From an archaeon (GTDB lineage Archaea > Nanobdellota > Nanobdellia > Pacearchaeales > DTIR01): a stretch of 64,000 nt of DNA. The stretch spans positions 28,903-92,902 of the forward strand of contig JAZDNM010000003.1 in assembly GCA_043799715.1 (NCBI GenBank), read 5' to 3'. Under the pieces are notes generated by a model. That model was not told the origin of the DNA, did not search any database, and saw nothing but the letters and a program-made list of their open reading frames with translations. A program made the translations under genes and the position numbers. Within the stretch, counting starts at the first letter, position 1, and each line of letters opens with the position of its first letter. Shown piece after piece: positions 6,519-48,799 of this stretch.

Positions 6519-6635
6519 ATGGAAACTGAAACCAAAATCATAAGGATGTTAATAGAAAAGAAGAGAGCTTTTACTATTAGAGAGAATATTGTCACAGAAA
6601 AGCATATATCAAAGAATAATAACCTTTATATATAA
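6519..6635 (+). pseudogene. Short ORF (38 aa) resembling the N-terminal winged-helix part of an MNT-type protein; possible cassette remnant
   Basis: METETKIIRMLIEKKRAFTIRENIV... parallels the N-terminus of the 5278 protein (KILGVFKENLFGEFSISEV). It is below the ORF-track size cutoff. Confidence 0.25.
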
Positions 6636-16260: not shown

Positions 16261-17429
16261 CTGAAGATTTCCTTCCTTATTATTTTTTGGGAATTAAACC
16301 ACTCTTTTTTCATTTTTATAATATGTTTTTCACTGATTTTTTTTCTTATCTCTTCTGCCAGCCTGCCTGCGTCAATATTGCTGTATTCAATAATTGAACT
16401 ATCAGCTTTGTCTTTCAGAAGCAAAGCCCTGTAATACTGCTCTATCCCTGCTTTGCTTATGTTGTCAAATTTTGGGATGATTATTGATTTTTTTCCAAGG
16501 AGCATTGTTTCTGCAGAAGTGTTGTAGCCAGCCATGCTTACAGACAAGTCGCATGCATTGAGCAGCCTGCTGAAATCTGATGAAAATTTTATAAGTTTCA
16601 TATTTTTCCTGCCTTTAGCCATCTTCCTGAATATCTTTTCTTCTTTTGCAGTTGAGGATATCCCATAGACAACAATAAAGAAGAAATTATCCCCGAGGAT
16701 TTCTGACGCTTTTATTGCGCTTGAGATTATTTTTGGGTAGATAACTCCGCCTCCCCTGCTGGCAAGTATAATCTTTTGGTTTTTGCCTATGCCAAAAGCA
16801 TTCCTGAGACTATCATCTCTTCTTATTTTGGGCTTTGCTGTCAGATAATTTGTAAATGTAATCTTGGATGCAAGTTTGCTGAACACACTGTTATAGAAAT
16901 CAAGGATGTCATCTCTTCCTATCAGATTAAGCGCTTTCCTTATATAAGCCAAGTCAAGGTTTTCAGGGCAGTGAATCAAAATTTTGTCATAATATTCTGA
17001 AAATTTTAATATTCTCTCATTTTCAATTACAGGATATCCCACGCTTGCATAAATCTTTATTGAAGGATTAATCTGCCTGAGATGCCTTATTATTGAGGAT
17101 ATCTCAATTGAAAAGATTCTCCTGCCAAAAGGGAAAAATTCTGTTATAAACACATCAGGGCTGAAATCTTTTAACTTGTCCGTGATAAATTTTATTCTCT
17201 TTTTTATTCTTTCAATGCTTATTCTGGCTCTTCCTCCCTTGAACACCTCTTTTCCTGCTATGCTCCACGGAACATTTATTATTTCTGCATGAAAGTCTGG
17301 AATCTTTTGTGCCTTTCCTGCCTGTATAACAAGAATTTCATTTCCGGGCTTCAAAACATTAGCAAGGTTCCTTGTTCTTGATGTATGCCCAAGTGATTCA
17401 TAATGAGTATAATACAATGCGATTCTCAT
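16257..17429 (-). CDS. Glycosyltransferase (GT-B fold, GT1/GT28-like)
   Basis: The N-terminus MRIALYYTHYESLGHTSRTRNLA and the C-terminal nucleotide-sugar binding half (ASRGGG...MAGYNT) resemble MurG/MGT-type enzymes. Confidence 0.55.
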   Translation of the reverse strand: MRIALYYTHYESLGHTSRTRNLANVLKPGNEILVIQAGKAQKIPDFHAEIINVPWSIAGKEVFKGGRARISIERIKKRIKFITDKLKDFSPDVFITEFFPFGRRIFSIEISSIIRHLRQINPSIKIYASVGYPVIENERILKFSEYYDKILIHCPENLDLAYIRKALNLIGRDDILDFYNSVFSKLASKITFTNYLTAKPKIRRDDSLRNAFGIGKNQKIILASRGGGVIYPKIISSAIKASEILGDNFFFIVVYGISSTAKEEKIFRKMAKGRKNMKLIKFSSDFSRLLNACDLSVSMAGYNTSAETMLLGKKSIIIPKFDNISKAGIEQYYRALLLKDKADSSIIEYSNIDAGRLAEEIRKKISEKHIIKMKKEWFNSQKIIRKEIFS

Positions 17430-18529
17430 TTCTTCCTAAAAAACTCCCTTACTGCAGCGGAAATCTGCCTGATTTCATCCTCTTTTATAAAATGGAAAAA
17501 TGGAAGATGCAGGCATCTTTTGTAATAATCCTCTGCTCCTGGAAATTTCCTATTCTGGTTTTCTGAAAATATGCAGATTGCTGGATAAGGCAATTCTGCT
17601 AAGATATTTCTTTTTTTCAGGAAGTCATGCAGCATGTTCCTTTCATCCTCGCCTTCAAGCTGAATTACTAATCTTGTGTAAAGCCCTTCATTCTTGTTTT
17701 TTGAGTTGATAATCCTAATTTCATTTATACCGCTTAGTTCCTTGAAGTATAACTCTTTCATCTTGTTATGGCGCTCCTGCATCTTGCTGAAATACCTCAG
17801 CTGGACTGCAATGCTGCTTATCGCAGGAAGCGAAATTCTTGAAATTCCCTTGAGCTCCTTTGCCTGCATCAATCTGCTTATTTTTTCTGCATTCTCCTCT
17901 GATTTGAATGTGAGCATCCCGCCCCCGCTGCTGCCTATTGAAGAGATGAATTTTTCATTTGAGAAGCTGAAAATTGCAAAATCGCCTAAACTCCCAAGAT
18001 ACTTGTCATCAATCTTGTTTCCTATTGCCTGGCAGGCATCTTCTAAAAGAACGAGATTGTTTTTTTCTTTTATTTTAACAAGCTCTTTCATATTGCAGGC
18101 ATTTCCAAACATATGAGCTGCAACAATAGCCTTTGTATCCCTGTTGACAAGTTTCTCTGCCTTTTCTGTGTCAATTGCAAAATTTTCAGGATTTACATCG
18201 CACAGCCTCATTTTTATATCAGGGAAGCATGAGAAAGAGCTGGTTAAGCTGTAATATTCTGCTGCAGGAACAATAACCTCTGCTTTTTTTCCTCTGCTGT
18301 TTAAACTTAACAACCATAAGAAAAGAGTGAATGCCTGCGTGCCTGAACCAACGGATTTTGAATGAATAAACCCGAATTTCCTGCTGAATTCATCTTCGAG
18401 GGCAGCAGAATATTTTTGGATGTCATTTGCTCCATTTAAGCCCCTTATTGCCCTGCTGAGCTCTGCGAAATATTTTTTTTCGAGAATTTTGTCTATTCTC
18501 AGGTTGTCATGCCTTGCTTTCCACACCAT
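17426..18529 (-). CDS. DegT/DnrJ/EryC1/StrS-family PLP-dependent sugar aminotransferase
   Basis: It has the motifs GSGTQAF, EDACQAIG and GDFAIFSFSNEKFIS (Lys in the SF..K context). Confidence 0.8.
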   Translation of the reverse strand: MVWKARHDNLRIDKILEKKYFAELSRAIRGLNGANDIQKYSAALEDEFSRKFGFIHSKSVGSGTQAFTLFLWLLSLNSRGKKAEVIVPAAEYYSLTSSFSCFPDIKMRLCDVNPENFAIDTEKAEKLVNRDTKAIVAAHMFGNACNMKELVKIKEKNNLVLLEDACQAIGNKIDDKYLGSLGDFAIFSFSNEKFISSIGSSGGGMLTFKSEENAEKISRLMQAKELKGISRISLPAISSIAVQLRYFSKMQERHNKMKELYFKELSGINEIRIINSKNKNEGLYTRLVIQLEGEDERNMLHDFLKKRNILAELPYPAICIFSENQNRKFPGAEDYYKRCLHLPFFHFIKEDEIRQISAAVREFFRKK

Positions 18530-18559: not shown

Positions 18560-19741
18560 ATGATGGTTGAGGTTGAGGCTGCAAGAGATGAAAGGGAGAT
18601 TATAGCGCAGTTCAACATTCTATTGAAGAATTTCTCAGGTTTCAATAATCTGGGCGAAGTCAGGGAGATAAGAAAAATTGAGGACATAGATAGAATACCA
18701 ATGACAACAAGGCAGAGCCTTGAATCACTGGGAATAAAGAATGCTCCTATTCAACCTTTATGCATGCATGTGACAAGCGGCTCTTCAGGCAAAAATGTCC
18801 CTGTATTCTACTCTGAAAAATCATGGCAAGTTCTTGTGGAAAGGACAAAAAAGCTTTTTGAATTTATGGAAATTTCAAAGAAAGACATAGTCCTTAACCT
18901 GTTTGAATACGGGCTTTCAAATGAGGGGCTTGCAATAGACAATGCGCTGGCAAGTGCGGGGATAGCTGCATTTCCCTGCGGAAATCTTGAAAAGGAAAAG
19001 AAGTATCTTGCCAGGGACTTGATTAAAAAGATAAAGCCAACAGCCCTTATCTCTTTTCCTTCATTTATCTTTGACCTTATTGAATTGAATGCTGACTTGT
19101 CATCGATAAAGAAGATTATGCATGCAGGCAGCTTTGTATCAAGGGAGTTCTTTGATTTTATGCGCAGCAGGATAGATGCTGTTTTTTACAATTGCTATGG
19201 CTGCAACGAAGTCGGCCCTATTTCAATCAGCAGGACTTTTGAAGATGAATTCTCGCTTCTTATTGATAAAGGGCTTTACATAGAGGTTCTTGATGACAAT
19301 AGCAAGCCGCATGAAATAGGAGAAGGCAGGATTTTAATCACTGATTTGTATAATCTTTCAACCCCAATGATAAGATATTTTCTTGGTGACAGGGTTAAAA
19401 TAATAAAGCAGGATGGAAAAAAATATATAAAAGTCCTGAAAAGAGAGGACTCCTACTCCAAAATAAACGGCGCTGTAATGCCTGTAGGTCTGCTTGTAAA
19501 GACATGCATGGAACAAATAGGGCATGACCACTTTTCAATACTTGTGAATTTTTCAAAATCCTCAATGAAGGACGAGACTGTAATCTATCTGCTCAAAAAA
19601 GATGCAGGCAAGGCATCAGCACTGCAGAAAGAGTTCAACGAGAAACTTAATCTCTTCCCGCAAATCAAGCTGATAGGAAATATGCCCAGGACATTCACAG
19701 GCAAGATAAGGAATTTTATTGATGCAAGAAAACCAGAGTAA
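18560..19741 (+). CDS. Adenylate-forming ligase of the PaaK/CapK/F390-synthetase family
   Basis: It has the AMP-binding motif TSGSSGKNVPVFYS, and its size and architecture match phenylacetate-CoA ligase-like enzymes. Confidence 0.7.
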   Translation: MMVEVEAARDEREIIAQFNILLKNFSGFNNLGEVREIRKIEDIDRIPMTTRQSLESLGIKNAPIQPLCMHVTSGSSGKNVPVFYSEKSWQVLVERTKKLFEFMEISKKDIVLNLFEYGLSNEGLAIDNALASAGIAAFPCGNLEKEKKYLARDLIKKIKPTALISFPSFIFDLIELNADLSSIKKIMHAGSFVSREFFDFMRSRIDAVFYNCYGCNEVGPISISRTFEDEFSLLIDKGLYIEVLDDNSKPHEIGEGRILITDLYNLSTPMIRYFLGDRVKIIKQDGKKYIKVLKREDSYSKINGAVMPVGLLVKTCMEQIGHDHFSILVNFSKSSMKDETVIYLLKKDAGKASALQKEFNEKLNLFPQIKLIGNMPRTFTGKIRNFIDARKPE

Positions 19742-22576: not shown

Positions 22577-22960
22577 TTACTTCTTGCTCTTTGTTTCATC
22601 CAAATCTCTCAGGAGCTCTTCAATCTCTTTTTCTTCTGCCTCTTCTGCTATCGAGGGATTTGCGCTGAATAAAGCCCTTTCAAGAATCATTTTCACTATA
22701 TCCTTTTCTCTTTTCAAAGAGGCATAGTAATTCCCGTAGTTTATCAGCTCGTCATAGAATTCCTGCTTTATTTTTTCTGCATCTTTCCCATTTTTCCTGA
22801 AAATCTGCACTATAATCTCTTTTTTCGGGTTTCCATCAAGGATTATGTATGCCCTATCAAGCATTGAATATGCTGCTGCATAAATCACTTGCATTGAATA
22901 TATCTGGGGATTTATCTTTATGATAACTGATTCATCTTTGCTGTTTTCATTCTCTTTCAT
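22577..22960 (-). CDS. HxsD-like accessory protein
   Basis: The patterns VIIKINPQIYSMQVIYAAAYSMLDRAYIILD and FYDELINYGNYYASLKREKDIVKMILERALF resemble, from memory, the HxsD family and its LLNDYxLRE signature. Confidence 0.5.
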   Translation of the reverse strand: MKENENSKDESVIIKINPQIYSMQVIYAAAYSMLDRAYIILDGNPKKEIIVQIFRKNGKDAEKIKQEFYDELINYGNYYASLKREKDIVKMILERALFSANPSIAEEAEEKEIEELLRDLDETKSKK

Positions 22961-22980
22961 TTTACTTTTATCCCTTCATG

Positions 22981-23015
22981 AATCAGAACCAATTGATATT
23001 GGTTCCGATACCTCC
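22981..23015 (-). repeat. R1 hairpin element, copy A (35 nt, identical to the copy at 31979-32013)
   Basis: The plus-strand sequence is aatcagaaccaattgatattggttccgatacctcc. In the sense of local transcription (minus strand) it reads GGAGGTATCGGAACCAAT-ATCA-ATTGGTTCTGATT, a 12-bp stem. It lies between the rtcB stop and the first gene of the Hxs-like operon. Confidence 0.7.
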
Positions 23016-23016
23016 G

Positions 23017-24435
23017 CTAACCCTTCATTACTGCAATTGGCTTTAATTTTGCCACAAGCTTGCCTATTCCTGCCTCGTGGCTTACTTTTACAACTTCGTC
23101 TATGTCTTTGTATACTTGCGGCGCTTCCTCTGCTATTGATTTCCACGAAGCTGCCTTGATTTCTATGTTCTTTTTTGCAAGCTCATCCCTTATCTGCTCC
23201 CCCCTGAACTCGCGCAATGCAGCGCTTCTTGAGCTTACTCTTCCTGCGCCATGCGCAGTGCTTGCAAATGAAATTTCCTCTGCTGTTTTTGTTCCGAGCA
23301 GAACATAGCTTGATGTGCCCATGCTGCCAGGCAGTATAATCGGCTGCCCTGCATCCCTGTAAACTTCAGGAATTTCCTCTCTCCCTGCCCCGAAGCTTCT
23401 TGTTGCGCCTTTCCTGTGCACGCAAACTTCCCTAATTTTGTCATCAATCCTGTGCTTTTCAATTTTTGCTATATTGTGGCATACATCATATACAACTCCA
23501 ATCTTGCATGGCAGCAGTTTGCTGAAAACTTCCCTTATCCAGTGGGTTATCATCTGCTTGTTGCAGAAAGCAAAGTTTGCTGCTGCGCTCATAGCAGCAT
23601 AATATTTCTGCCCCATGTCGGACATGATAGGCGCGTTTATCAGCTCCCTGTCAGGCAGATTTTTGAAACCATACTTGTCTTCCATCAGTTTTATGTAGTC
23701 AGAAGCAACCTGATGCCCCAATCCCCTTGAGCCGCAATGCACCATAATCATAACCTGCCCCTTTTCTGTTATGCCGAGCATTCTCGCTGTTCTTTCATCA
23801 TATATCTCTGAAACTTCCTGTATCTCAAGAAAGTGATTCCCGGCGCCAAGGCTTCCAAGCTGCGGCATTCCTCTTTCAATTGCCCTTGCTGAAACCTCTG
23901 ATGCTTTTGCAGTTTTCATGCATCCCTCTTCTTCTGTTTTTTTCCAGTCATCTGCAGTGCCAAATCCCTGCCTGACAGCCCACTTTGCCCCCTGTTCAAG
24001 AACATCCTTTATGACATCCCTTGTCTGCCTTGTCTTTCCTGCCCTTCCAACTCCGCTTGGCACATTTGAGAACAATTCATTCAGAATTTCAGTTCTTTTT
24101 TTCATCAGTTCCTTTGCTGTCAGGTCAGTTTTTAAAAGGCGGACTGAGCAGTTGATGTCATATCCAACTCCTCCTGGAGAAATAATGCCTTCATTCATGT
24201 CAAATGCCGCCACTCCTCCGATGGGAAAACCGTATCCGGAATGAACATCAGGCATTGCTATTGCATATTTGAGTATTCCAGGCAGTTTTGCAATATTTGC
24301 AAGCTGCTGCACTGCTGTTTCCTCAACATCCCTGAGCAGTTTTTCAGAGATAAATGCCTTTGCAGGCACTTTCATGCTCCCTTCTTTCGGCAGCTCAAAT
24401 TCGAACTTGCTGATTTTTCTCAGTTTTTCTTTCAT
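23017..24435 (-). CDS. rtcB: RNA-splicing ligase RtcB
   Basis: It has the diagnostic motifs GYDINCSVRLL, GAGNHFLEIQ, HCGSRGLGHQV and HGAGR. Confidence 0.95.
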   Translation of the reverse strand: MKEKLRKISKFEFELPKEGSMKVPAKAFISEKLLRDVEETAVQQLANIAKLPGILKYAIAMPDVHSGYGFPIGGVAAFDMNEGIISPGGVGYDINCSVRLLKTDLTAKELMKKRTEILNELFSNVPSGVGRAGKTRQTRDVIKDVLEQGAKWAVRQGFGTADDWKKTEEEGCMKTAKASEVSARAIERGMPQLGSLGAGNHFLEIQEVSEIYDERTARMLGITEKGQVMIMVHCGSRGLGHQVASDYIKLMEDKYGFKNLPDRELINAPIMSDMGQKYYAAMSAAANFAFCNKQMITHWIREVFSKLLPCKIGVVYDVCHNIAKIEKHRIDDKIREVCVHRKGATRSFGAGREEIPEVYRDAGQPIILPGSMGTSSYVLLGTKTAEEISFASTAHGAGRVSSRSAALREFRGEQIRDELAKKNIEIKAASWKSIAEEAPQVYKDIDEVVKVSHEAGIGKLVAKLKPIAVMKG

Positions 24436-24532
24436 ATCTCTCCTGATTCATCCCAATTGATTTATTATTTAAATAGCTTGCCCCAAATAAAGCATATTTT
24501 TCAGAATAGAAAAGTATTTATTTAATTCAAAA

Positions 24533-25732
24533 GTGGTAAAAGCTATGAGAACAACAGAAGAATATTTTAATTCATACAGGCAGGTTCAAAAGGGTTCTTT
24601 TAGAATATTGGGCAATGAGAACAAAGAAATAGAGGAGTTCAGAACAGTTGAGATAAGGCAGCAGCCGTTATTCAGGCAGTATTCAACTCTTATATGTGTT
24701 GAAAGGGCAAACAGGCCTGTAAATTTCAACCATAGCTCTAACCTTTACACCAAGGGGCATATTCAGGACGTTGTTAGTAAGATGCTCCAAAGCAATATGG
24801 ATGGAATAAATTTAGAGAAAGCAGTTGAAAATGAACTTCTAAAAATTGACCAGAGTGAAGAAAAAAAGAAAAGAGACAAATGCCCTTTCTGCTACCCTAA
24901 CCTGGAGAAGGTAACGCCAAATCCCAAGAAGATGCATAATAGCGGGCTTACAATAGAGGATTCTGAGTTTAAACTTGCGAAAATGCCTGAATCAAAAGTA
25001 ATCAGTGTTCCCAATCTCTATCCATTTACTGTTCCTCATTGGGTTACTATCTTTGCAAAACACAAGCCGGACTTGCAGGAATTGAACTTTCAGGATATTT
25101 TCAATTATATCGAAAGCGGGTATGAAATCGCGAAAGAGATAAAATTTATAGAAGGTGTTGATGGCATGTGGGATATAATAAACTGGGGTCCTGAAGCCGC
25201 TGCTTCCCAACCGCATCCGCATGCCCAGCGAGGGGGCATAGCAACAATGATGATTACTGAAATGGACAGAGAAATAGAAAAATGCACTGCCGCAAAAAAA
25301 TACCTTATGGATGACCCATTTGAGCATTATATGAATAGAATAAGGCAAAGCGCCTTATTTGGTTTTGAGAATGAGCACATACTTATTCATGCACCATTCG
25401 CACCAAAATTTCCGCATTCAATAGATATAATATGCAAGAGAAAAGCGGGCAATATACTTGATTTAAATGAACATGAAAGGAAGGTAATTGCGCACAGCAT
25501 GCTTGGTGTTTTCCACTTGCTTTATAACCGATGCGGGGTCAGGGACTTGAATGTTGTAACGCACCAAACAAGATTAAACAGCAAGAACGAGTCGGATTAT
25601 CATCTTCATTGGCACTTTATGCCCAGAAATCTCAACAAGCTTGGAGGAGTAGAAATAAATCTGAATAATTTTGTGGTTTCAGTTTTTCCAGAAGCAACAG
25701 CAAAAGAGATAAAAACACATTACAAGGTCTAA
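24533..25732 (+). CDS. GalT-branch HIT-superfamily nucleotidyltransferase/phosphorylase-like protein
   Basis: It has the zinc motif DKCPFC, the active-site-like SQPHPHAQ (His-Pro-His), and a second HLHWHFMPR. The track start is GTG, and an alternative ATG lies at 24545. Confidence 0.6.
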   Translation: MVKAMRTTEEYFNSYRQVQKGSFRILGNENKEIEEFRTVEIRQQPLFRQYSTLICVERANRPVNFNHSSNLYTKGHIQDVVSKMLQSNMDGINLEKAVENELLKIDQSEEKKKRDKCPFCYPNLEKVTPNPKKMHNSGLTIEDSEFKLAKMPESKVISVPNLYPFTVPHWVTIFAKHKPDLQELNFQDIFNYIESGYEIAKEIKFIEGVDGMWDIINWGPEAAASQPHPHAQRGGIATMMITEMDREIEKCTAAKKYLMDDPFEHYMNRIRQSALFGFENEHILIHAPFAPKFPHSIDIICKRKAGNILDLNEHERKVIAHSMLGVFHLLYNRCGVRDLNVVTHQTRLNSKNESDYHLHWHFMPRNLNKLGGVEINLNNFVVSVFPEATAKEIKTHYKV

Positions 25733-25736
25733 TTCA

Positions 25737-26162
25737 TCACAAGTCAACAACAACCTGCGCTGAAAACTTGCCTTTCTCTTTTTTTATCAGCATGCTGTTG
25801 TATGTGACTGCCTTTACCTCTCCGAATGTTTCATATTTCTTTGAGTTGTCCCCGAGAATTTCTGCTTCAAGCACGTATTTCCCTTCATTTCCTGAGATTT
25901 TCATTTTTTCAATCCTGCATGCAAGGAAATTTTTGGAATCAAGCAGGAATATAACCTCCTCAAGAAAATTATAAAGCAGGGATTCAGGATTTTTTGCCTT
26001 AACTTTTATCTTTTTGCTTGTTTTTCTGATTATTTTGCTGGTTTCGCACATCAAGTTCAGCATCGCCATTGCTGAATTGCTGAATGCCTCTTCCAGTGTC
26101 CTGCCTGTTGCAATGAACTTGCCGTCTGCAGTGTGCTCAAGATATCTGTATCCTTTTGCCAT
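25737..26162 (-). CDS. Archease (RtcB activator)
   Basis: The N-terminus YRYLEHTADGKFIATGRTLEEAF matches the archease signature EHTAD...G.tleE. Confidence 0.85.
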   Translation of the reverse strand: MAKGYRYLEHTADGKFIATGRTLEEAFSNSAMAMLNLMCETSKIIRKTSKKIKVKAKNPESLLYNFLEEVIFLLDSKNFLACRIEKMKISGNEGKYVLEAEILGDNSKKYETFGEVKAVTYNSMLIKKEKGKFSAQVVVDL

Positions 26163-31428: not shown

Positions 31429-31974
31429 CTATGCTTTCTTGTCCCTGATTATAAGGATGCTGCTGCCTATTAAATCAGAAACAACAGCGCTGACTGACAT
31501 GTCGTCTAATCTTGCCTTGAAAACGCCTTCCTGCAATGGAATTCTTGTTTTTCCAGAGATTTTTTGCATGACTTGTTTTAAATCATTCTCACTTATCTTA
31601 ATCCCACTGTCCTCAAACAAGCTGCCTTTTTTTACAAGAATGCTTCCCCCTGAGATTTCAATTGCGTTTACACTTGCATCTTCAAGCAGCCTGTCAATAT
31701 CTTCATTAAGAGCTATGCTCTGCTTTTTTTTGGCAGGAACTTCGGCAATCTCTTCTCTTGCTTCCTCTTTTCCAGCCATCCCGGGAAACTGCCTTATTAT
31801 CAGCCTTACTTTCTCAAGCGCTTCCTCTCTTACTCTATCCTCTTCTTTAGGGATAATCGGAATAATTTCCTGTTCCAATTCTGCTTTTACCGGCATTGCT
31901 TCTATAGCATTATTTACAAATTCCTGAAGAAATTCCTCCTTTTCAGAAGAGGTTAGATATACAGTCTCAAACAT
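31429..31974 (-). CDS. Stand-alone protein resembling the N-terminal domain of secretion ATPases
   Basis: The C-terminal half VNAIEISGGSILVKKGSLFEDSGIKISENDLKQVMQKISGKTRIPLQEGVFKARLDDMSVSAVV parallels the N1/N2 region of GspE/CpaF/FlaI-type ATPases. It has no Walker motifs. Confidence 0.45.
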   Translation of the reverse strand: MFETVYLTSSEKEEFLQEFVNNAIEAMPVKAELEQEIIPIIPKEEDRVREEALEKVRLIIRQFPGMAGKEEAREEIAEVPAKKKQSIALNEDIDRLLEDASVNAIEISGGSILVKKGSLFEDSGIKISENDLKQVMQKISGKTRIPLQEGVFKARLDDMSVSAVVSDLIGSSILIIRDKKA

Positions 31975-31978
31975 TCTT

Positions 31979-32013
31979 AATCAGAACCAATTGATATTGG
32001 TTCCGATACCTCC
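31979..32013 (-). repeat. R1 hairpin element, copy B (identical 35-mer)
   Basis: It is the same 35 nt as 22981-23015. It lies between the 114-aa gene stop and the 181-aa gene start, 4 nt upstream of the ATG. Confidence 0.7.
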
Positions 32014-32030
32014 ATAAATATAAACAATTT

Positions 32031-32375
32031 TTAAAATCTGAATTCAGGCAGGGGCTTAGGCTTTGTTTTTTCAGAAGTCATCTCTTCCTCAACCATGCTC
32101 AGCCCCCTTGCAATTGTCTTGTTTTGCTCTGTAAGCTCATTCAGCTTTTCTGTCAAGCCCCGGACTTCGGTTTTCTGCTGCTCTTTTCTCTCCTTGAAGT
32201 TTTTTGCTGATGACTCAAAAAGTTTCAGCAGATTTGAAATCTGTTCAGTCAGGGTTGAAAGCTTTCCTGAGACTTCTGTGAGAACTTTCTGCAGGGAGAT
32301 AAAATTTCCTATGAGCAGGTCTGCTGTAGAATCCTCTTTTTTCTCTTTGTTTTCCTCATCCCCTTTTGCAGCCAT
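32031..32375 (-). CDS. Hypothetical coiled-coil protein
   Basis: It is a 114-aa Lys/Glu-rich helical ORF at the head of the pilus locus. Confidence 0.4.
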   Translation of the reverse strand: MAAKGDEENKEKKEDSTADLLIGNFISLQKVLTEVSGKLSTLTEQISNLLKLFESSAKNFKERKEQQKTEVRGLTEKLNELTEQNKTIARGLSMVEEEMTSEKTKPKPLPEFRF

Positions 32376-32417: not shown

Positions 32418-32570
32418 TGGGGACAGGGCGAATCGAACGCCCAACCGACGGTTTCTTCGCTATTGTAGTTTCTTTCTACTTCCAAGCTTTTTAATTTCTC
32501 TTTCCAAGGTTTCTCTTTTGAAAGAGAAAGCTTTCTGGAGCCGTCCGTTTTACCATTAAACTATGCCCCC
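32418..32570 (-). tRNA. tRNA-Trp (CCA) with an intron of about 81 nt at the canonical 37/38 position
   Basis: Manual fold: acceptor GGGGGCA/TGTCCCC, anticodon stem GACGG/CCGTC, loop CTCCAGA, T arm GGGCG-TTCGATT-CGCCC, discriminator A. The intron spans about 32453-32533. Confidence 0.85.
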
Positions 32571-33935: not shown

Positions 33936-34316
33936 ATGATAATCGCCCTGGATACAAATTTCCTTGTTTACTGCGCGAGGCAGAAGCTTGATTTTATCAG
34001 GGAAATTGAAAGGATGTGCAGCTGCACAAATAAAATTGTTGTTCCGGGGCAAGTTCTTAAGGAGCTTGAAAAACTGTCAAAATCTAACTCTCTTGACAGC
34101 ATCTCCGCAGCACTTGCGCTAAAAATGACAAAGGATTATATCTCTAAAAGCAGAATGCATGCCGAGATTATTGATGCAGACACTGCTGATTCAGCGCTTC
34201 TTGAACTGGATTTTAAAGGCAACGCTATAGCAACGCTTGACGCGGAACTGAGAGCAAAATTCAAAAATGCAAAGGTTATTGTGATACGCCAGTTCAACCA
34301 TCTTGAATGGGCTTAA
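33936..34316 (+). CDS. Small PIN-domain protein (Fcf1/Utp24-like)
   Basis: It has MIIALDTNFLVY, VPGQVLKELEKL and ATLDAELR. Its size matches archaeal Fcf1-like PIN proteins. Confidence 0.55.
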   Translation: MIIALDTNFLVYCARQKLDFIREIERMCSCTNKIVVPGQVLKELEKLSKSNSLDSISAALALKMTKDYISKSRMHAEIIDADTADSALLELDFKGNAIATLDAELRAKFKNAKVIVIRQFNHLEWA

Positions 34317-36410: not shown

Positions 36411-36681
36411 TATAAAAACCAAAAAATCCAAAAGGATTTTAGGGTGCTCAGAAATGTTAAACATTTCTGACATAATAGAAAAGCCAGCCAACTTTAATCA
36501 TAATAGTGGAGGTATCTTAACACTCTTGAAGGGAAAGTATCGGAAACCGTAGGTTTCTGATAAAGAAAACCCTTAGAGGACCTTCCCGCGTATTCAAAAA
36601 GAACTGCGTCAAGGTCCTCTTGGGTAAAAAGAGGTGATACTATTTTCAAGGAACTACACTTTATAAATCTTTCGGTTTTGT
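36411..36681. ncRNA. Unassigned structured, non-coding locus (candidate ncRNA or long structured UTR; orientation unresolved)
   Basis: A 22-nt BRE/TATA-like box at 36660-36681 is identical to the one upstream of the S-layer-like gene (minus orientation). Several hairpins are present: 36448-36471, 36537-36562 (R1-like), 36576-36619 and 36615-36636. A hairpin plus T-run in minus sense lies at 36411-36440. No credible ORF is present. Confidence 0.3.
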
Positions 36682-38718: not shown

Positions 38719-38802
38719 GGCGGAAGGAGAGAATCGGACTCTCTTTTAGCGGGTTCTGCAGATTTCCACAGCCGCTTGTTCTGCCATTAAACTACATCCG
38801 CC
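38719..38802 (-). tRNA. tRNA-His (GTG) with encoded G-1 and a 12-nt intron
   Basis: G-1 pairs with C73. The acceptor is GCGGATG/CTTCCGC with one U-U, the anticodon stem is AGCGG/CCGCT and the loop is CTGTGG. Intron AAATCTGCAGAA (38754-38765) gives a good bulge-helix-bulge, with CTGT pairing to GCAG. The T loop TCCGATT is atypical. Confidence 0.8.
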
Positions 38803-40036: not shown

Positions 40037-40909
40037 ATGGATGAGAAATTTCTTGATGCAGTTTATATTGATGCTTTTAATCTCGATGATGCGTGGTTCC
40101 AGTGCGTCAACAAGATTCTTGACAGGGGCTATAAGTACACAATAAGCAAAGGGAGCTATGAAGGGAATCAGAGGCTGGAATTTGACTATGTTACAGTAAA
40201 AGTCAGGAAACCTGGTGCTGAGCCGATTATACCTATTATGCCTGAGGGCTGCTCAATTCCTGCGCCAACAGATATGAAATATGTAACTGAAAATTATTTG
40301 CCGTATCTTCTTACCCCCCAGAAAACAGCAACAGAGAATTACACTTACGGAGAAAGGATGCATGAGCCAAAGGCAAGGCTTGAAGATAAATTAAGCATAG
40401 AGAAAGTCAAGGAAGGCGGTGTTGAATTAGGCAGTAAAACAGACGAGGAAATCAAGAAAATTTATCCATACACTCTTAATGTAAGAAGGGATGATGGAAA
40501 CATTATATTGTCAAGAGAGATTCCTTTTAATATGAATCCTTTTGAGCAGATTATAAAAGATTACAAAGAAAAGGGCTTTGGCACAAATCAGGAAACAATG
40601 GAGATAGCAATGCCTTCGGACATTGTGCTTAAGGACCCTCCATGCCTGAGATTGATTGATACAAGGATAAGGTATGGCAAGCTTCATTTTATGGTTTATT
40701 TCCGCTCTTGGGATTTGTGGGGAGGTTTTCCTTCAAATCTTGCCGGGCTTGAATTAGTAAAGCAGCACATGGCATCTGAGATTGGAGTGGAGAACGGCGA
40801 GATTATAGCGTCAAGCAAGGGACTGCATCTTTACAATTACGTGTGGGACCTTGCAAAAGCAAGGACGCATAAGGAAATTGATTTTGATAAATACAAGAAT
40901 CATGATTGA
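40037..40909 (+). CDS. thyA: Thymidylate synthase, archaeal ThyA-like
   Basis: It has the catalytic-Cys context DPPCLRLID and FRSWDLWGGFPSNLAGL. The ATG at 40037 avoids overlap with the convergent upstream gene. Confidence 0.65.
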   Translation: MDEKFLDAVYIDAFNLDDAWFQCVNKILDRGYKYTISKGSYEGNQRLEFDYVTVKVRKPGAEPIIPIMPEGCSIPAPTDMKYVTENYLPYLLTPQKTATENYTYGERMHEPKARLEDKLSIEKVKEGGVELGSKTDEEIKKIYPYTLNVRRDDGNIILSREIPFNMNPFEQIIKDYKEKGFGTNQETMEIAMPSDIVLKDPPCLRLIDTRIRYGKLHFMVYFRSWDLWGGFPSNLAGLELVKQHMASEIGVENGEIIASSKGLHLYNYVWDLAKARTHKEIDFDKYKNHD

Positions 40910-42189: not shown

Positions 42190-42348
42190 GCGGGGATGCC
42201 GGAGTGGCCAAACGGGCAGGACTCAGAAGAAGGTATCGGAAACCTTGGTTTCTGATGTGCCAAACTTAAGGTCCTTCGGAGAAACGGGAAAAGGGATGTG
42301 AAATCCTGTGGCTTAGTGCCTGCGTAGGTTCGATTCCTACTCCCCGCA
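42190..42348 (+). tRNA. tRNA-Leu (CAG), class II, with an intron of about 75 nt at 37/38
   Basis: The acceptor is GCGGGGA/TCCCCGC, the anticodon stem CAGGA/TCCTG and the loop CTCAGA. It has a long variable arm and T arm GTAGG-TTCGATT-CCTAC. The intron spans about 42228-42302 and carries an R1-like hairpin at 42230-42257. Confidence 0.85.
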
Positions 42349-43317: not shown

Positions 43318-43941
43318 ATGATAAAACAAATCTTCCATGATGTATGGAAGCTTTATTATGATAATTTTGGCTCAAACTGCTATCTTGTGAAAGCAGAGGG
43401 CAAGCATATTTTGATTGACACAAGCGGCAGGGAAAATAGGGAAGAGCTTATTTCTGATTTGAAAGATTTAAACCTCAATTTAGAAGATATCAGCCTTGTT
43501 CTGCTTACACATCTTCATTATGACCATATTGGCAATCTTGATTTGTTCAGGAATGCAGAATTTTTTGCTTCAAAGCAGGAAATTGAGGATTTCGAGAAAA
43601 ATCAGTTTGATGCTGTTTTGAATGAAAATTTTATTGAGAAGATAGTGGAAGGAAAAAGCAGCACCAAGCCTACAAAAGAATTTGCCGAGCTTGGCAAGGT
43701 TAAGATAAACCCTGTTGAAGATTTAAAATTTGAATCAATGGAGATAATTAAAGTTCCGGGGCATACCCAAGGAAGCATTGCTTTTTACATGCCTTCTGAA
43801 AGGATACTGTTTTCAGGAGACACTCTTTTCGAGGAAGGCACAGGCAGGACTGATTTGCCTACAAGCAATGCAAAAGAAATGGAAAACTCATTGAAAAAGC
43901 TGGATAAGTTAAGATTTAGATTCCTTTGCGCAGGGCACTGA
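43318..43941 (+). CDS. MBL-fold metallo-hydrolase
   Basis: It has the HxHxDH motif (THLHYDHIG), a later PGHTQGS, and GDTLF. Confidence 0.7.
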   Translation: MIKQIFHDVWKLYYDNFGSNCYLVKAEGKHILIDTSGRENREELISDLKDLNLNLEDISLVLLTHLHYDHIGNLDLFRNAEFFASKQEIEDFEKNQFDAVLNENFIEKIVEGKSSTKPTKEFAELGKVKINPVEDLKFESMEIIKVPGHTQGSIAFYMPSERILFSGDTLFEEGTGRTDLPTSNAKEMENSLKKLDKLRFRFLCAGH

Positions 43942-45180: not shown

Positions 45181-45321
45181 GGGCCTGTAGCTCAGCCAGG
45201 TTTAGAGCGCCTGTCTTATACGACGGTAAGAGGATACTCTTATCAATTGGATAAAGTAATCTTTATCAGAAAGTTGCTCTAAGCAAGCAGGTGGCCCGAG
45301 GTTCGAATCCTCGCAGGCCCA
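45181..45321 (+). tRNA. tRNA-Ile (TAT) with an intron of about 65 nt at 37/38
   Basis: The acceptor is GGGCCTG/CAGGCCC, the anticodon stem CCTGT/GCAGG and the loop CTTATA. A bulge-helix-bulge can be drawn, with C32-A35 pairing to intron TAAG and bulges TA|C and CA|A. The anticodon call depends on this intron placement. Confidence 0.7.
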
Positions 45322-45373: not shown

Positions 45374-45491
45374 GCCCCTTTAGTCTAGAGGCCCAGGATA
45401 GAGCCCTTTCGATGAGCTTTCTCTTTAGGAAAGAGAAATTAAAAAGTTCAATAGAAAGGCTTTGACACGGGTTCGAATCCCGTAGGGGGCA
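45374..45491 (+). tRNA. tRNA-Glu (TTC) with an intron of about 45 nt at 37/38
   Basis: The acceptor is GCCCCTT/AGGGGGC, the anticodon stem GAGCC/GGCTT and the loop CTTTCG. The T arm is ACGGG-TTCGAAT-CCCGT. The intron (about 45412-45456) contains R2 blocks. Confidence 0.8.
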
Positions 45492-46516: not shown

Positions 46517-46650
46517 GCCTCCGTAGCTCAGCTGGCAGAGCACGGCTTTCGTAAAGCTTTTCTTTGCTAAAGAAAACCTTGGAAAAGAAAAGTCTGTAGG
46601 AAACTACTTGAAAAAAGCTGGGGTCGCAGGTTCAAATCCTGCCGGAGGCT
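46517..46650 (+). tRNA. tRNA-Thr (CGT) with an intron of about 61 nt at 37/38
   Basis: The acceptor is GCCTCCG/CGGAGGC, the anticodon stem CGGCT/AGCTG and the loop TTCGTA. The T arm is GCAGG-TTCAAAT-CCTGC. The intron (about 46554-46614) is homologous to the tRNA-Trp intron. Confidence 0.85.
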
Positions 46651-47821: not shown

Positions 47822-48799
47822 ATGCCAGAAAAGGATTTTTCTTATGGTGAGATGTGGACTGAGAAATACAGGCCAAAGGACTTTCAGGGAATAGTCGGGC
47901 AGGAAGAGATTGTCAAAAGAGTCAAAGCTCTAACCAATTCACAAAACATCCCTCATTTGCTTTTTGCAGGCCCTGCAGGAACAGGAAAGTCATCGCTTTC
48001 TCTTATAATTGTCAAGGAGTTGTTTGGAAAGAACTGGCGCGAAAATTATCTCGAGCTTAATGCCAGCGATGAAAGAGGGATAGATGTTGTGAGGCAGAAA
48101 GTCAAGGATTTTGCAAGGACAAAAGCCCTGGGTGATGTCCCGTTCAAGATAATCTTCCTTGATGAGGCTGACGCGCTGACAAGAGAGGCGCAACAGGCAT
48201 TGAGAAGAACAATGGAGAATTTTACATCAACATGCAGGTTCATAATGTCATGCAACTACAGCAGCAAGATAATAGACCCTATCCAAAGCAGGTGCGTTGT
48301 TTTCAGGTTCAGGCTTCTTGAGAAAAAGGATATAGAGAAGATAATAAAGAGAATCACAGAGGAAGAAAAAATTGAGATTGACAGCGGCGCAATGGAAATC
48401 CTGTATGAGGTTTCAGAAGGCGATTGCAGAAGAATGATAAACTTATTGCAGGCAACTGCATCAATAAGCCAGAGGATAACAAAAGAACTTATTTTCACTC
48501 TTGTTTCCTCGGCAAAGCCGAGTGATATAAAGATTATTCTGGAATACGCGCTTGCAGGCGACTTTCTGAAGGCAAAGGACAAGCTTCTTGATGTAATGCT
48601 AAAGGAAAGCATATCAGGGCAGGATATCATCAAGGCAATTCAGAGGGAAATATGGAACCTGCATATAGAGCCTGAGATAAAAGTCAGACTTACAGAGAAG
48701 ACAGGGGAGGCAGAATTCAGGATTGTTGAGGGAAGCGACGAGTTTATCCAATTGGAAGCCCTGCTCGCCTCGTTTGTGCTTGCTGGGAAAAAGCAATAA
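47822..48799 (+). CDS. rfcS: Replication factor C small subunit
   Basis: It has WTEKYRPK, GPAGTGKSS, FLDEADALT and the SRC motif (IQSRC). Confidence 0.9.
   Translation: MPEKDFSYGEMWTEKYRPKDFQGIVGQEEIVKRVKALTNSQNIPHLLFAGPAGTGKSSLSLIIVKELFGKNWRENYLELNASDERGIDVVRQKVKDFARTKALGDVPFKIIFLDEADALTREAQQALRRTMENFTSTCRFIMSCNYSSKIIDPIQSRCVVFRFRLLEKKDIEKIIKRITEEEKIEIDSGAMEILYEVSEGDCRRMINLLQATASISQRITKELIFTLVSSAKPSDIKIILEYALAGDFLKAKDKLLDVMLKESISGQDIIKAIQREIWNLHIEPEIKVRLTEKTGEAEFRIVEGSDEFIQLEALLASFVLAGKKQ

Follow-up and report, generated by a model that had tools for sequence, protein, structure and literature searches.

A 64,000-nt stretch of archaeal DNA (the window in what follows; GTDB lineage Nanobdellota, Nanobdellia, Pacearchaeales, DTIR01; assembly GCA_043799715.1, contig JAZDNM010000003.1, positions 28,903 to 92,902 of the forward strand) carries four copies, W1 to W4, of a short hairpin element, R1, close relatives of which recur widely in DPANN archaea. 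The element is multi-copy, conserved in sequence across archaeal phyla, and present or absent at orthologous sites. We give about even credence to the view that DPANN lineages widely share a short, non-coding insertion element, miniature and palindromic, of which R1 is the local subfamily and which is comparable to miniature inverted-repeat transposable elements (MITEs) and Rickettsia palindromic elements (RPEs). No description of R1, or of any DPANN hairpin repeat, was found in the searchable literature, and R1 is not mentioned in the N. equitans RNA-seq paper or the circular omega-RNA paper. The best-supported reading is that the family is new and behaves most like RPEs and repeats of the MITE and repetitive extragenic palindrome (REP) types. 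Three features are unusual: a sequence nearly the same in different DPANN phyla, target duplications that are long and variable with a precise junction on one side and a ragged one on the other, and a close tie to the ends of tRNA segments.

The window copies and the corresponding sites in relatives

The initial annotation had singled out two identical 35-mers, and these (W1 and W2, Table) proved real: with up to 3 mismatches allowed, the 35-mer, which reads GGAGGTATCGGAACCAATATCAATTGGTTCTGATT on the minus strand in both cases, matched twice in the window and never in 100 shuffles. The 12-bp stem and 4-nt loop ascribed to it were recovered in folds of both RNA (–14.8 kcal/mol, z –4.5) and DNA (–9.4 kcal/mol, z –6.4). 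The core TATCGGAA-N-TTCTGAT occurred four times in the window and not at all in the shuffles, adding matches at 36538–36561 and 42234–42256, both on the plus strand, in line with the variants noted earlier near 36537–36562 and in the tRNA-Leu intron. A covariance model of 45 distinct family members, run over the whole window with filters off, returned exactly W1 to W4 (E 2e-9 to 9e-8), all remaining matches having E > 0.06 and the best of these being the antisense strands of the same four copies. Nothing except their being hairpins in non-coding DNA speaks for the four sites as chance AT-rich palindromes or simple terminators, an explanation with virtually no chance of being correct: it is contradicted by the empty shuffles, by model E-values of 1e-7 or better at exactly four sites, by more than 100 near-identical copies in other phyla, and by the absence of a T-run after the hairpin at W1 (followed by CATGAAGGGATAAAAG) and at W2 (followed by AAGAATGTTTGAG). 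The four copies are thus confirmed as real.

W1 starts 1 nt past the stop codon of rtcB, agreeing with its earlier placement right after that gene, and ends 20 nt ahead of the ATG of ORF 22577–22960. W2, at the beginning of a type-IV-pilus-like cluster, lies between a 114-aa ORF and a 181-aa ORF and ends 4 nt ahead of the ATG of the latter. All four copies lie in the sense of local transcription, as had been observed; across the family orientation is mixed.

The W2 site could be compared in relatives that keep the gene order 113-aa ORF, 185-aa ORF, ATPase, archease and rtcB, with RtcB proteins 76–79% identical to that of the window. While the spacer in the window measures 56 nt (17 + 35 + 4), that between the 114-aa and 181-aa ORFs is 22 nt in L003, 23 nt in L001 and, according to the gene calls, 33 nt in L006 and L008. 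No R1 was present at this site in any of these four loci, and no copy was found anywhere in three 20-kb syntenic relative loci. These R1-free spacers of 22–33 nt, against 56 nt in the window, indicate that W2 is an insertion. The 9-kb syntenic block between W1 and W2 is native in the relatives. The presence/absence comparison covers a handful of relatives: a metagenome scan with a 5-sequence alignment gave five loci only, and one with the 181-aa protein gave no relatives.

At W1, the 3′ end of rtcB is duplicated, with the last four codons (D1) recurring on the other side of the hairpin (D2) and differences confined to one synonymous position and the stop codon. The best named relatives of this RtcB belong to Pace-, Woese- and Nanoarchaeota. 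Four independent assemblies of one relative lineage (L003, L004, L005 and L245) carry a longer orthologous form of R1 after rtcB, in which the stop codon is directly followed by GGAGGTATCGGAACCAATCTCAATTGGTTCC, about 50 nt with two more hairpins, and GGTGATT; this form is R1 with extra loop material. Here the duplication reads ATGAAAGGGTAA ... ATGAAGGGCTAA, its repeats differing at synonymous or stop positions only. The duplicated rtcB end thus lies directly past R1 in both lineages, and does so in all four assemblies of the relative. L001, L006 and L008 have a convergent gene after rtcB and lack R1 there.

Some further features of these loci were recorded. The two extra hairpins in the R1 loop of L003 (11459–11515) are GGAAATCTTTTGATTTCC and CGAAAAGC-GAAA-GCTTTTCG, the second of which resembles the AAAGCTTTT-type hairpins that adjoin R1 copies and tRNA starts elsewhere (L136, L210 and L211), suggesting several families of nested hairpin repeats. 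Archease (25737–26162) adjoins rtcB in all relatives, and is separated from it in the window by an opposite-strand gene of 399 aa (24436–25736 interval). This gene was considered as a transposase and rejected, its match being a weak GalT-like one. The new upstream region of rtcB holds AATCAATTGGGATGAATCAGGAG, with a faint likeness to the 3′ half of W1.

W3 and W4 are alike in sequence outside the hairpin as well. The separated GGAGGTATC reported upstream of W3 was found there, this sequence having three occurrences only, namely in both 35-mers and at the detached position. On either side of the 20 nt between it and W3 the sequence GTATC is repeated, which resembles a small nested insertion, and in the predicted fold the detached GGAGGTATC forms the 5′ strand of an outer helix around W3. 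The enclosing structured region has a minimum free energy of –51 kcal/mol (z –4.95), which none of 200 shuffles equalled in stability. This 130-nt region upstream of scpA has no counterpart in Rfam and might be either the gene of a small RNA or several hairpin insertions nested in one another. Searches by E-value around W3 and the long form of L003 gave no Rfam match better than E 0.45, and at the gathering score of Rfam 15 only tRNAs were found in the window.

Table. Positions of R1 copies and other features in the window.
Feature	Position	Strand	Description
W1	22981..23015	(-)	35-nt R1: GGAGGU tail, 12-bp stem with one G.U, AUCA loop
W2	31979..32013	(-)	second identical 35-nt R1 copy; spacer between ORF 32031–32375 and ORF 31429–31974
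W3	36533..36561	(+)	variant GAAAGUAUCGGAAACC-GUA-GGUUUCUGAU; 330-nt MFS/scpA spacer; model E 9e-8
W4	42229..42256	(+)	variant GAAGGUAUCGGAAACC-UU-GGUUUCUGAU; 5′ end of tRNA-Leu(CAG) intron; model E 3e-9
rtcB (RNA-splicing ligase)	23017..24435	(-)	PF01139, E 6e-168; 3′ end duplicated around W1
D1, upstream copy of duplicated target	23017..23028	(-)	last four rtcB codons, ATGAAGGGTTAG
D2, direct repeat of rtcB end	22968..22979	(-)	ATGAAGGGATAA, 1 nt after W1
ORF downstream of W2, 181 aa	31429..31974	(-)	start conserved with relatives (MFET.YLTS)
Detached GGAGGTATC	36508..36516	(+)	20 nt upstream of W3
Region around W3 predicted to be structured	36511..36641	(+)	outer helix GGUAUC/GAUACU, W3 hairpin and long second hairpin
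tRNA gene	32418..32570	(-)	Rfam tRNA model
tRNA gene	38719..38801	(-)	Rfam tRNA model
tRNA-Leu(CAG) gene, intron-containing, host of W4	42190..42348	(+)	Rfam tRNA model, 41.9 bits; anticodon read from sequence
tRNA gene	45181..45321	(+)	Rfam tRNA model
tRNA gene	45374..45491	(+)	Rfam tRNA model
tRNA gene	46517..46650	(+)	Rfam tRNA model

Five of the six tRNA genes of the window contain long introns and the sixth (38719–38801) a short insert only; ARAGORN at default settings found none of the six. The sequence TATCAATTGG, said to be shared with R1 by the tRNA-Ile intron, is indeed present there, but the covariance model does not score this intron and the likeness is possibly a chance 10-mer. 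The introns of tRNA genes 32418, 45374 and 46517 hold a second hairpin family, AGCTTTCTCTTT-NN-AAAGAGAAA (CCTTGGAAA..), that is unrelated to R1.

A hairpin family in DPANN genomes and the sites it occupies

Species-representative genomes were scanned with the pattern GGAGGTATCGGAA-N(4-24)-TTCTGAT, for which about 23 chance matches were estimated under uniform base composition. At least 116 loci were obtained, about 100 of those listed being contigs of DPANN metagenome-assembled genomes (MAGs). Among the matches listed, the labelled lineages include Woese-, Nano-, Micr-, Iain-/Diapherotrites, Aenigm-, Alti-, Undin-, Naiad- and Parvarchaeota and a few Bathyarchaeia, strict copies number up to 7 per MAG, and ordinary bacteria contribute, by our count, a handful of matches, mostly with a shorter 7-bp stem. 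We estimate the abundance of R1 at tens of copies per genome; over the listed loci, the covariance model detected 118 copies in 666 kb. A stricter pattern, GGAGGTATCGGAAC-N(3-24)-GTTCTGAT, had no match in 2.9 million viral contigs (IMG/VR), where the matches listed for a pattern looser than that used on the genomes were noise only, and phage and plasmid collections yielded chance partial matches or none. Two short contigs labelled as bacterial (L158, KSB1 bacterium; L232, Mucilaginibacter) carry tRNA genes, intron-containing in L158, beside true R1 copies and are on that account probably mis-binned DPANN contigs.

The usual element is 27 nt long (GGAGGTATCGGAACC, a 3-nt loop and GGTTCTGAT), and its RNA consensus consists of a GGAGGU tail, a 9-bp stem AUCGGAACC/GGUUCUGAU with one G.U pair, and a variable loop, most commonly GTA (20 copies), GCA (11), TAA (10) or GAA (5). 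The 9-bp inverted arms ATCGGAACC/GGTTCTGAT are paired in 98.9% of cells. The tail and lower stem are essentially invariant, which suggests sequence-specific recognition; positions left free by the search pattern are conserved too (CC/GG). Minor variants keep the pairing, as in GGAAACC/GGTTTC, GGAAAAAC/GTTTTTC and stems of 11–12 bp of differing sequence. A subfamily of 41–42 nt, GGAACCG-[14-15 variable nt]-CAGGTTC, has a loop insert of constant length and variable sequence and occurs in several phyla (L143, L144, L158, L169, L181, L182, L188, L206, L220 and L229). Compensatory changes were confined to the top two pairs; covariation is weak evidence here, the test having little power when 7 of the 9 pairs were set by the search pattern and the helix hardly varies. 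In many copies, CCUUCC or CCUCC and a 4–7-nt loop stand ahead of the GGAGG tail (e.g., CCUUCC-GUAAG-GGAGG; L191, L227, L232, L233, L239 and L168), so that a second small hairpin would sequester GGAGG; this arrangement is absent at W1 and W2.

Many copies lie at tRNA genes, which were located with ARAGORN allowing long introns and then inspected by eye. In 7 cases a sense R1 ends 0–4 nt ahead of the first nucleotide of a complete tRNA, and in 6 cases an antisense R1 starts 0–4 nt past the last. At canonical 37/38 introns, an antisense R1 lies 0–8 nt from the 5′ splice site (at least 9 cases by ARAGORN and at least 15 by eye), and twice a sense R1 lies at the 3′ splice site. The CTGAT end lies at an intron edge in at least 12 cases. 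At least 8 loci comprise a complete tRNA, a short spacer, a sense R1 and then a repeat of the 3′ part of the tRNA from the T loop onward. The CTGAT end of R1 touches the tRNA segment in every class, with the exception of W4, whose tail end faces the 5′ exon. With respect to tRNAs, about 19 copies are sense and about 15 antisense. Against crude ORF calls about 62–65% are sense, a rough figure since such calls are noisy in AT-rich DNA. Neighbouring copies within one locus are co-oriented at 12 of 13 loci.

Other copies lie at or within protein genes, and for several of those within long ORFs this was borne out by Pfam and homologue comparisons. In about 12 of 109 copies, as at W2, an ATG no more than 7 nt past R1 opens an ORF of 60 codons or more. 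The 27 nt correspond to 9 codons; sense frame 1 is always open (GGIGTxGSD), frame 3 has a TGA, and the three antisense frames are open. In the NCBI-annotated FtsY protein P0121, GGIGTAGSD corresponds to frame 1 of R1 and stands between the N-terminal MFKLLKEKL helix and the SRP54_N domain; P0122, a homologue of 81% identity, has unrelated residues at this site. A HerA-like ORF contains R1 105 codons in, antisense copies occur in the C-terminus of a TnpB and in a LamG-domain protein, and the copy at the tnpB 3′ end is in frame like the other ORF insertions. In L208 (2954–3568), BolA and monothiol-glutaredoxin domains share one open frame, joined by R1 in frame 2 (KEVSEPKVLI), representing either a gene fusion made by R1 or two genes with a lost stop codon.

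Together, these positions show that R1 is tolerated where 27 extra nt are harmless: outside mature tRNA ends, at intron edges, in operon spacers, before start codons and in frame within ORFs. Its occurrence in tRNA introns can be read as survivorship, because within tRNA genes only insertions removed by the endonuclease would be viable. For DPANN, heavy disruption of tRNA genes is reported to go together with splicing endonucleases that possess an extra loop (PMC5829648).

Target duplications were examined by aligning the 35 nt to the left of each copy with the 35 nt to its right, using flanks paired between different loci as a control. A direct-repeat score of at least 24 was reached by 12% of copies versus 0.2% of mismatched flank pairs. 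The repeats measure 12–42 nt and begin 0–4 nt from the CTGAT end and 0–20 variable nt from the GGAGG side; the CTGAT junction is precise and the GGAGG-side junction variable. Duplicated targets comprise tRNA 3′ ends, starting in the T loop and reaching past the terminator (L150, L213, L235 and L185), about 40 nt at the end of a histone-like gene that take in its final 11 codons and stop codon (L134, with three differences, all synonymous), and AT-rich palindromic, promoter-like segments (L136, L142, L210 and L211); L216 is a further example. In L150 (6711–6960) and L213 (7440–7680), each known from a single assembly, a complete tRNA precedes a tandem array of 2–3 units, each made up of the tRNA 3′ part beginning in the T loop, the terminator, R1 and GTGG, with periods of 57 and 67 nt, which looks like repeated insertion or rolling-circle-type copying.

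Insertion element or functional hairpin

R1 folds more stably in sense than in antisense, both as DNA (–5.4 vs –3.0 kcal/mol) and as RNA (–10.1 vs –6.6 kcal/mol). The GGAGGT tail and the G.T pair (A.C on the other strand) are the same in both orientations, and among 62 distinct copies the asymmetric pair is G.U in 58, G-C in 3 and A-U in 1, and never a mismatch on the sense strand. That the hairpin of one and the same strand is kept whichever way transcription runs speaks for recognition of DNA, perhaps in the form of a folded single strand. C-GNA-G triloops are especially stable in DNA hairpins, and their dominance in R1 fits such recognition. R1 is probably conserved at the DNA level instead of being purely an RNA-level, intron-derived module. 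From the intron-derived mobile RNA module initially proposed, the apparent mobility (W2 being absent in relatives and duplications enriched) and the sharing between introns and mRNA spacers can be retained, whereas a specifically intron-derived origin cannot, orientation being mixed.

Bulge-helix-bulge geometry with the flanks, also suggested at the outset, was sought with a strict scanner (two 3-nt bulges on opposite strands and a 4-bp helix) that recovers the motifs of tRNAs 45181 and 46517. It found none bracketing W1 and a weak, AU/GU-rich candidate at W2 that was equalled in 3.1% of flank shuffles. Over 108 copies, a score of at least 8 was reached by 17.6% in sense versus 9.6% of shuffles and by 11% in antisense versus 4%, a slight enrichment that is due to the copies in tRNA introns and to palindromic flanks. 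No consistent geometry of this kind was therefore found for R1.

The mechanism that we favour under the insertion-element reading would involve a trans-acting, DPANN-conserved enzyme recognising the near-invariant tail and lower stem, probably as a folded single strand, given that only the sense strand forms an uninterrupted hairpin with the G.T pair tolerated and that GNA triloops dominate. This enzyme would insert R1 at staggered breaks, with repair duplicating the target, and the asymmetric junctions would resemble those of target-primed insertion; the positions in tRNA genes resemble integrase sublocations, and the two likenesses do not discriminate between these modes. W1 would then be an old insertion behind rtcB, common to the L003 lineage, W2 a recent identical copy, and W3 and W4 members of a sister subfamily. 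R1 hairpins in transcripts would be by-products that are at most secondarily useful.

Several observations weigh against insertion. Most copies lack a detectable duplication, which decay or another mode of origin could explain, and the duplications, at 12–42 nt, exceed in length and variability what any classical transposase makes. Single-assembly, MAG-derived arrays such as those of L150 and L213 could be assembly artefacts. No transposase, integrase or reverse transcriptase was linked to R1, with Pfam scans of neighbouring genes giving no integrase, and no inverted R1 pair bounds a gene in the approximately 0.8 Mb of loci. The downstream duplicate at W1 has been kept between lineages whose RtcB proteins are only 76% identical, hinting at constraint beyond the hairpin. 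Selfish DNA does not usually show a 27-mer that is nearly identical in different phyla, which would suit a host function equally well, and the 0–4-nt adjacency to RNA ends could reflect a processing function instead of targeting or selection.

A rival reading is a recognition hairpin acting at the RNA level, in which a DPANN-conserved processing enzyme or RNA-binding protein would bind the GGAGGU tail and lower stem and define an RNA end at the hairpin base; candidates are a broad-specificity splicing endonuclease with RtcB, or a 5′/3′ end-maturation nuclease. Judging from sequence, a common protein-recognition hairpin, one of the two initial proposals, is possible, and the RNA-level version, fairly unlikely in our estimation, stays a serious rival, since all of the tight junctions fall at RNA ends, known or plausible; it would account for the 0–4-nt distance of the hairpin base from tRNA 5′ and 3′ ends, splice sites and the first codons of mRNAs that are probably leaderless. 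Invariance across phyla, retention of the sense-strand G.U or its exchange for G-C or A-U, the apparently leaderless genome of the window and the tie of extra-loop DPANN endonucleases to disrupted tRNA genes (PMC5829648) point the same way. However, about half of the tRNA-associated copies are antisense, so that the transcript has an A.C mismatch and an ACCUCC tail, no consistent bulge-helix-bulge surrounds R1, copies internal or antisense to ORFs have no obvious end to define, and the flanking direct duplications are left unexplained. Another idea, which we hold to be quite unlikely, is that R1 is the signature of a DPANN-wide pathway that attaches this particular hairpin to naturally occurring ends of RNA or DNA and then establishes the result in the genome, perhaps by ligation or target-primed copying of an R1 RNA with the 3′ end ...CUGAU. 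Distinctly improbable, in turn, is a site-specific recombination site (an integrase core or attC-like site), with the duplicates on either side of R1 as attL/attR identity blocks of very small integrating units. Its arms (ATCGGAA / TTCTGAT) are invariant around a variable, paired centre, and its tRNA positions match the classical integrase sublocations in tRNA genes, which Williams is said to have given in 2002 as the anticodon loop, T loop and 3′ end. Duplications running from the T loop to past the tRNA 3′ end, like integrase identity blocks, the tandem arrays with periods of 57 and 67 nt and the co-orientation of neighbouring copies would also suit such a site. Yet the scans of neighbouring genes placed no recombinase gene beside the copies, the "integrated element" would measure merely 30–90 bp, the attC core motifs (RYYYAAC/GTTRRRY) are absent, many dispersed direct active sites would destabilise a small genome, and the 9-kb block between W1 and W2 is native in the relatives.

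The GGAGGU tail raises the further question of translation, in which it would serve as a Shine-Dalgarno sequence while the hairpin loops out the spacer to the AUG, as has reportedly been proposed for phage T4 gene 38. The ATG 0–7 nt past the hairpin at W2 and in about 12 family members agrees with this, as does the complementarity of the tail plus AUC to the anti-Shine-Dalgarno region of 16S rRNA. However, a GGAGG-type core within 30 nt upstream was found for 3 of 57 ORFs of the window, against a background of 3%. Many ORFs of the window have a TATA-like TAAA exactly at –25 to –22 from the ATG (e.g., 17426–18529, 18560–19741, 33936–34316, 40037–40909, 43318–43941 and 47822–48799), a spacing that, together with the near-absence of GGAGG sites, suggests mostly leaderless mRNAs. 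With Shine-Dalgarno use negligible, the tail is unlikely to be mainly a ribosome-binding site. Moreover, most copies lie beside tRNAs, in antisense or within ORFs, and the W1 hairpin is followed by a 3-codon remnant and not by a gene start, which makes a translation-initiation module very improbable. The 5′-leader role ascribed to W1 and W2 is accordingly doubtful in a probably leaderless genome.

Antisense R1 aligned best with the last 24 nt of 16S rRNA, taken from the sole 16S gene in the loci (L143, minus strand, 6525–6570): GAACCTGCGGAT-AGATCACCTCC in the rRNA, comprising the 3′ strand of helix 45 and the anti-Shine-Dalgarno, agrees with GAACCTGCGGTTCCGAT-ACCTCC of antisense R1 at about 19–20 of 24 positions. 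All four common loop variants align to this 3′ end, and equally good scores anywhere in the 1.5 kb were reached by 2 of 2000 shuffles for the GCA variant and by 31 of 2000 for the GTA variant. It follows that sense R1 is for the most part complementary to the small-subunit rRNA at its 3′ terminus, well past the anti-Shine-Dalgarno. The resemblance may be a clue to the origin of R1 or to a host factor, or a coincidence of two GGAACC-containing hairpins.

Two other candidates were rejected: a promoter (R1 would span –27 to –1 of leaderless genes), there being no TATA-like sequence and antisense copies having to drive antisense transcription of tRNAs; and a split-tRNA or leader/trailer duplex, no tRNA having both a sense and an antisense copy.

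Significance and comparison with known systems

DPANN archaea have tiny genomes with unusually fragmented tRNA genes. For the question of the gain and movement of archaeal tRNA introns, one 27-nt hairpin, which nine or more DPANN lineages carry at gene starts, tRNA ends and the borders of introns, offers a concrete, searchable object. It helps to explain why a standard tRNA finder fails on DPANN genomes, flags 9-residue GGIGTxGSD inserts as selfish-DNA scars, and identifies DPANN contigs binned into bacterial MAGs. If a host enzyme binds the tail and lower stem, it is probably a hitherto unnoticed part of the nucleic-acid metabolism that DPANN archaea have in common. If the hairpin-joining pathway were real, it would account for new tRNA introns at 37/38, duplicated 3′ ends of tRNA and protein genes, and 9-codon protein inserts, and would be an active route by which archaea gain introns and have their tRNA genes disrupted.

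Among known repeats, a CRISPR repeat was considered and rejected, since the "spacers" of the L150 and L213 arrays are identical copies of tRNA 3′ ends and all other R1 are solitary. With attC and tRNA-targeting att sites, R1 shares conserved inverted arms around a variable paired centre, strand-asymmetric imperfections, positions at the anticodon loop, T loop and 3′ end of tRNAs, and direct repeats of the target 3′ end. Unlike attC, it has the arms ATCGGAAC ... GTTCTGAT instead of RYYYAAC ... GTTRRRY, no integrase in Pfam scans of the adjoining genes, and an insert of tens of bases in place of a gene cassette or provirus. Archaeal bulge-helix-bulge tRNA introns, including the "transposed" introns of Thermoproteales, likewise place related sequence by the splice sites of different tRNA genes, in lineages with relaxed-specificity splicing endonucleases; R1, in contrast, is a module of the intron edge that occurs in both orientations and also outside tRNA genes, and supplies no bulge-helix-bulge.

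REPs and bacterial interspersed mosaic elements resemble R1 as imperfect palindromes of 20–40 nt with a conserved single-stranded 5′ extension, located in operon spacers and after genes. However, REPs are strictly extragenic and species-specific, with a 5′ GTAG, hundreds of copies and RAYT transposases, whereas R1 has the 5′ extension GGAGGT, lies inside FtsY, HerA-like, LamG and TnpB ORFs and tRNA introns, crosses phyla, and is estimated at tens of copies per genome. MITEs and the palindrome-associated transposable elements (PATEs) of IS200/IS605 are, like R1, small, non-coding and multi-copy, with inverted arms and presence or absence at orthologous sites, and, as with PATEs, the form of R1 that is recognised may be a single-stranded hairpin containing one imperfect pair. 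R1 possesses the terminal inverted repeats of a MITE but not its short target duplication of fixed length: MITEs make fixed duplications of 2–10 nt and IS200/IS605 elements none, whereas those of the far shorter R1 vary from 12 to 42 nt, and no partner transposase with matching ends was found in the approximately 0.8 Mb of loci.

RPEs measure approximately 100–150 bp and belong to one bacterial genus with a small symbiont genome, where they occupy intergenic DNA, RNA genes and, translated in frame, protein genes. R1 differs in being 27–42 nt long, archaeal and cross-phylum, in clustering at tRNA ends and intron edges, and in the long target duplications that often border it. The two are nevertheless alike as short palindromes that have no known mobilising enzyme, occur in RNA genes as well as between genes, and are met with in frame inside ORFs, the host protein being retained after insertion of R1 in FtsY P0121 as it is with RPE-like selfish DNA.

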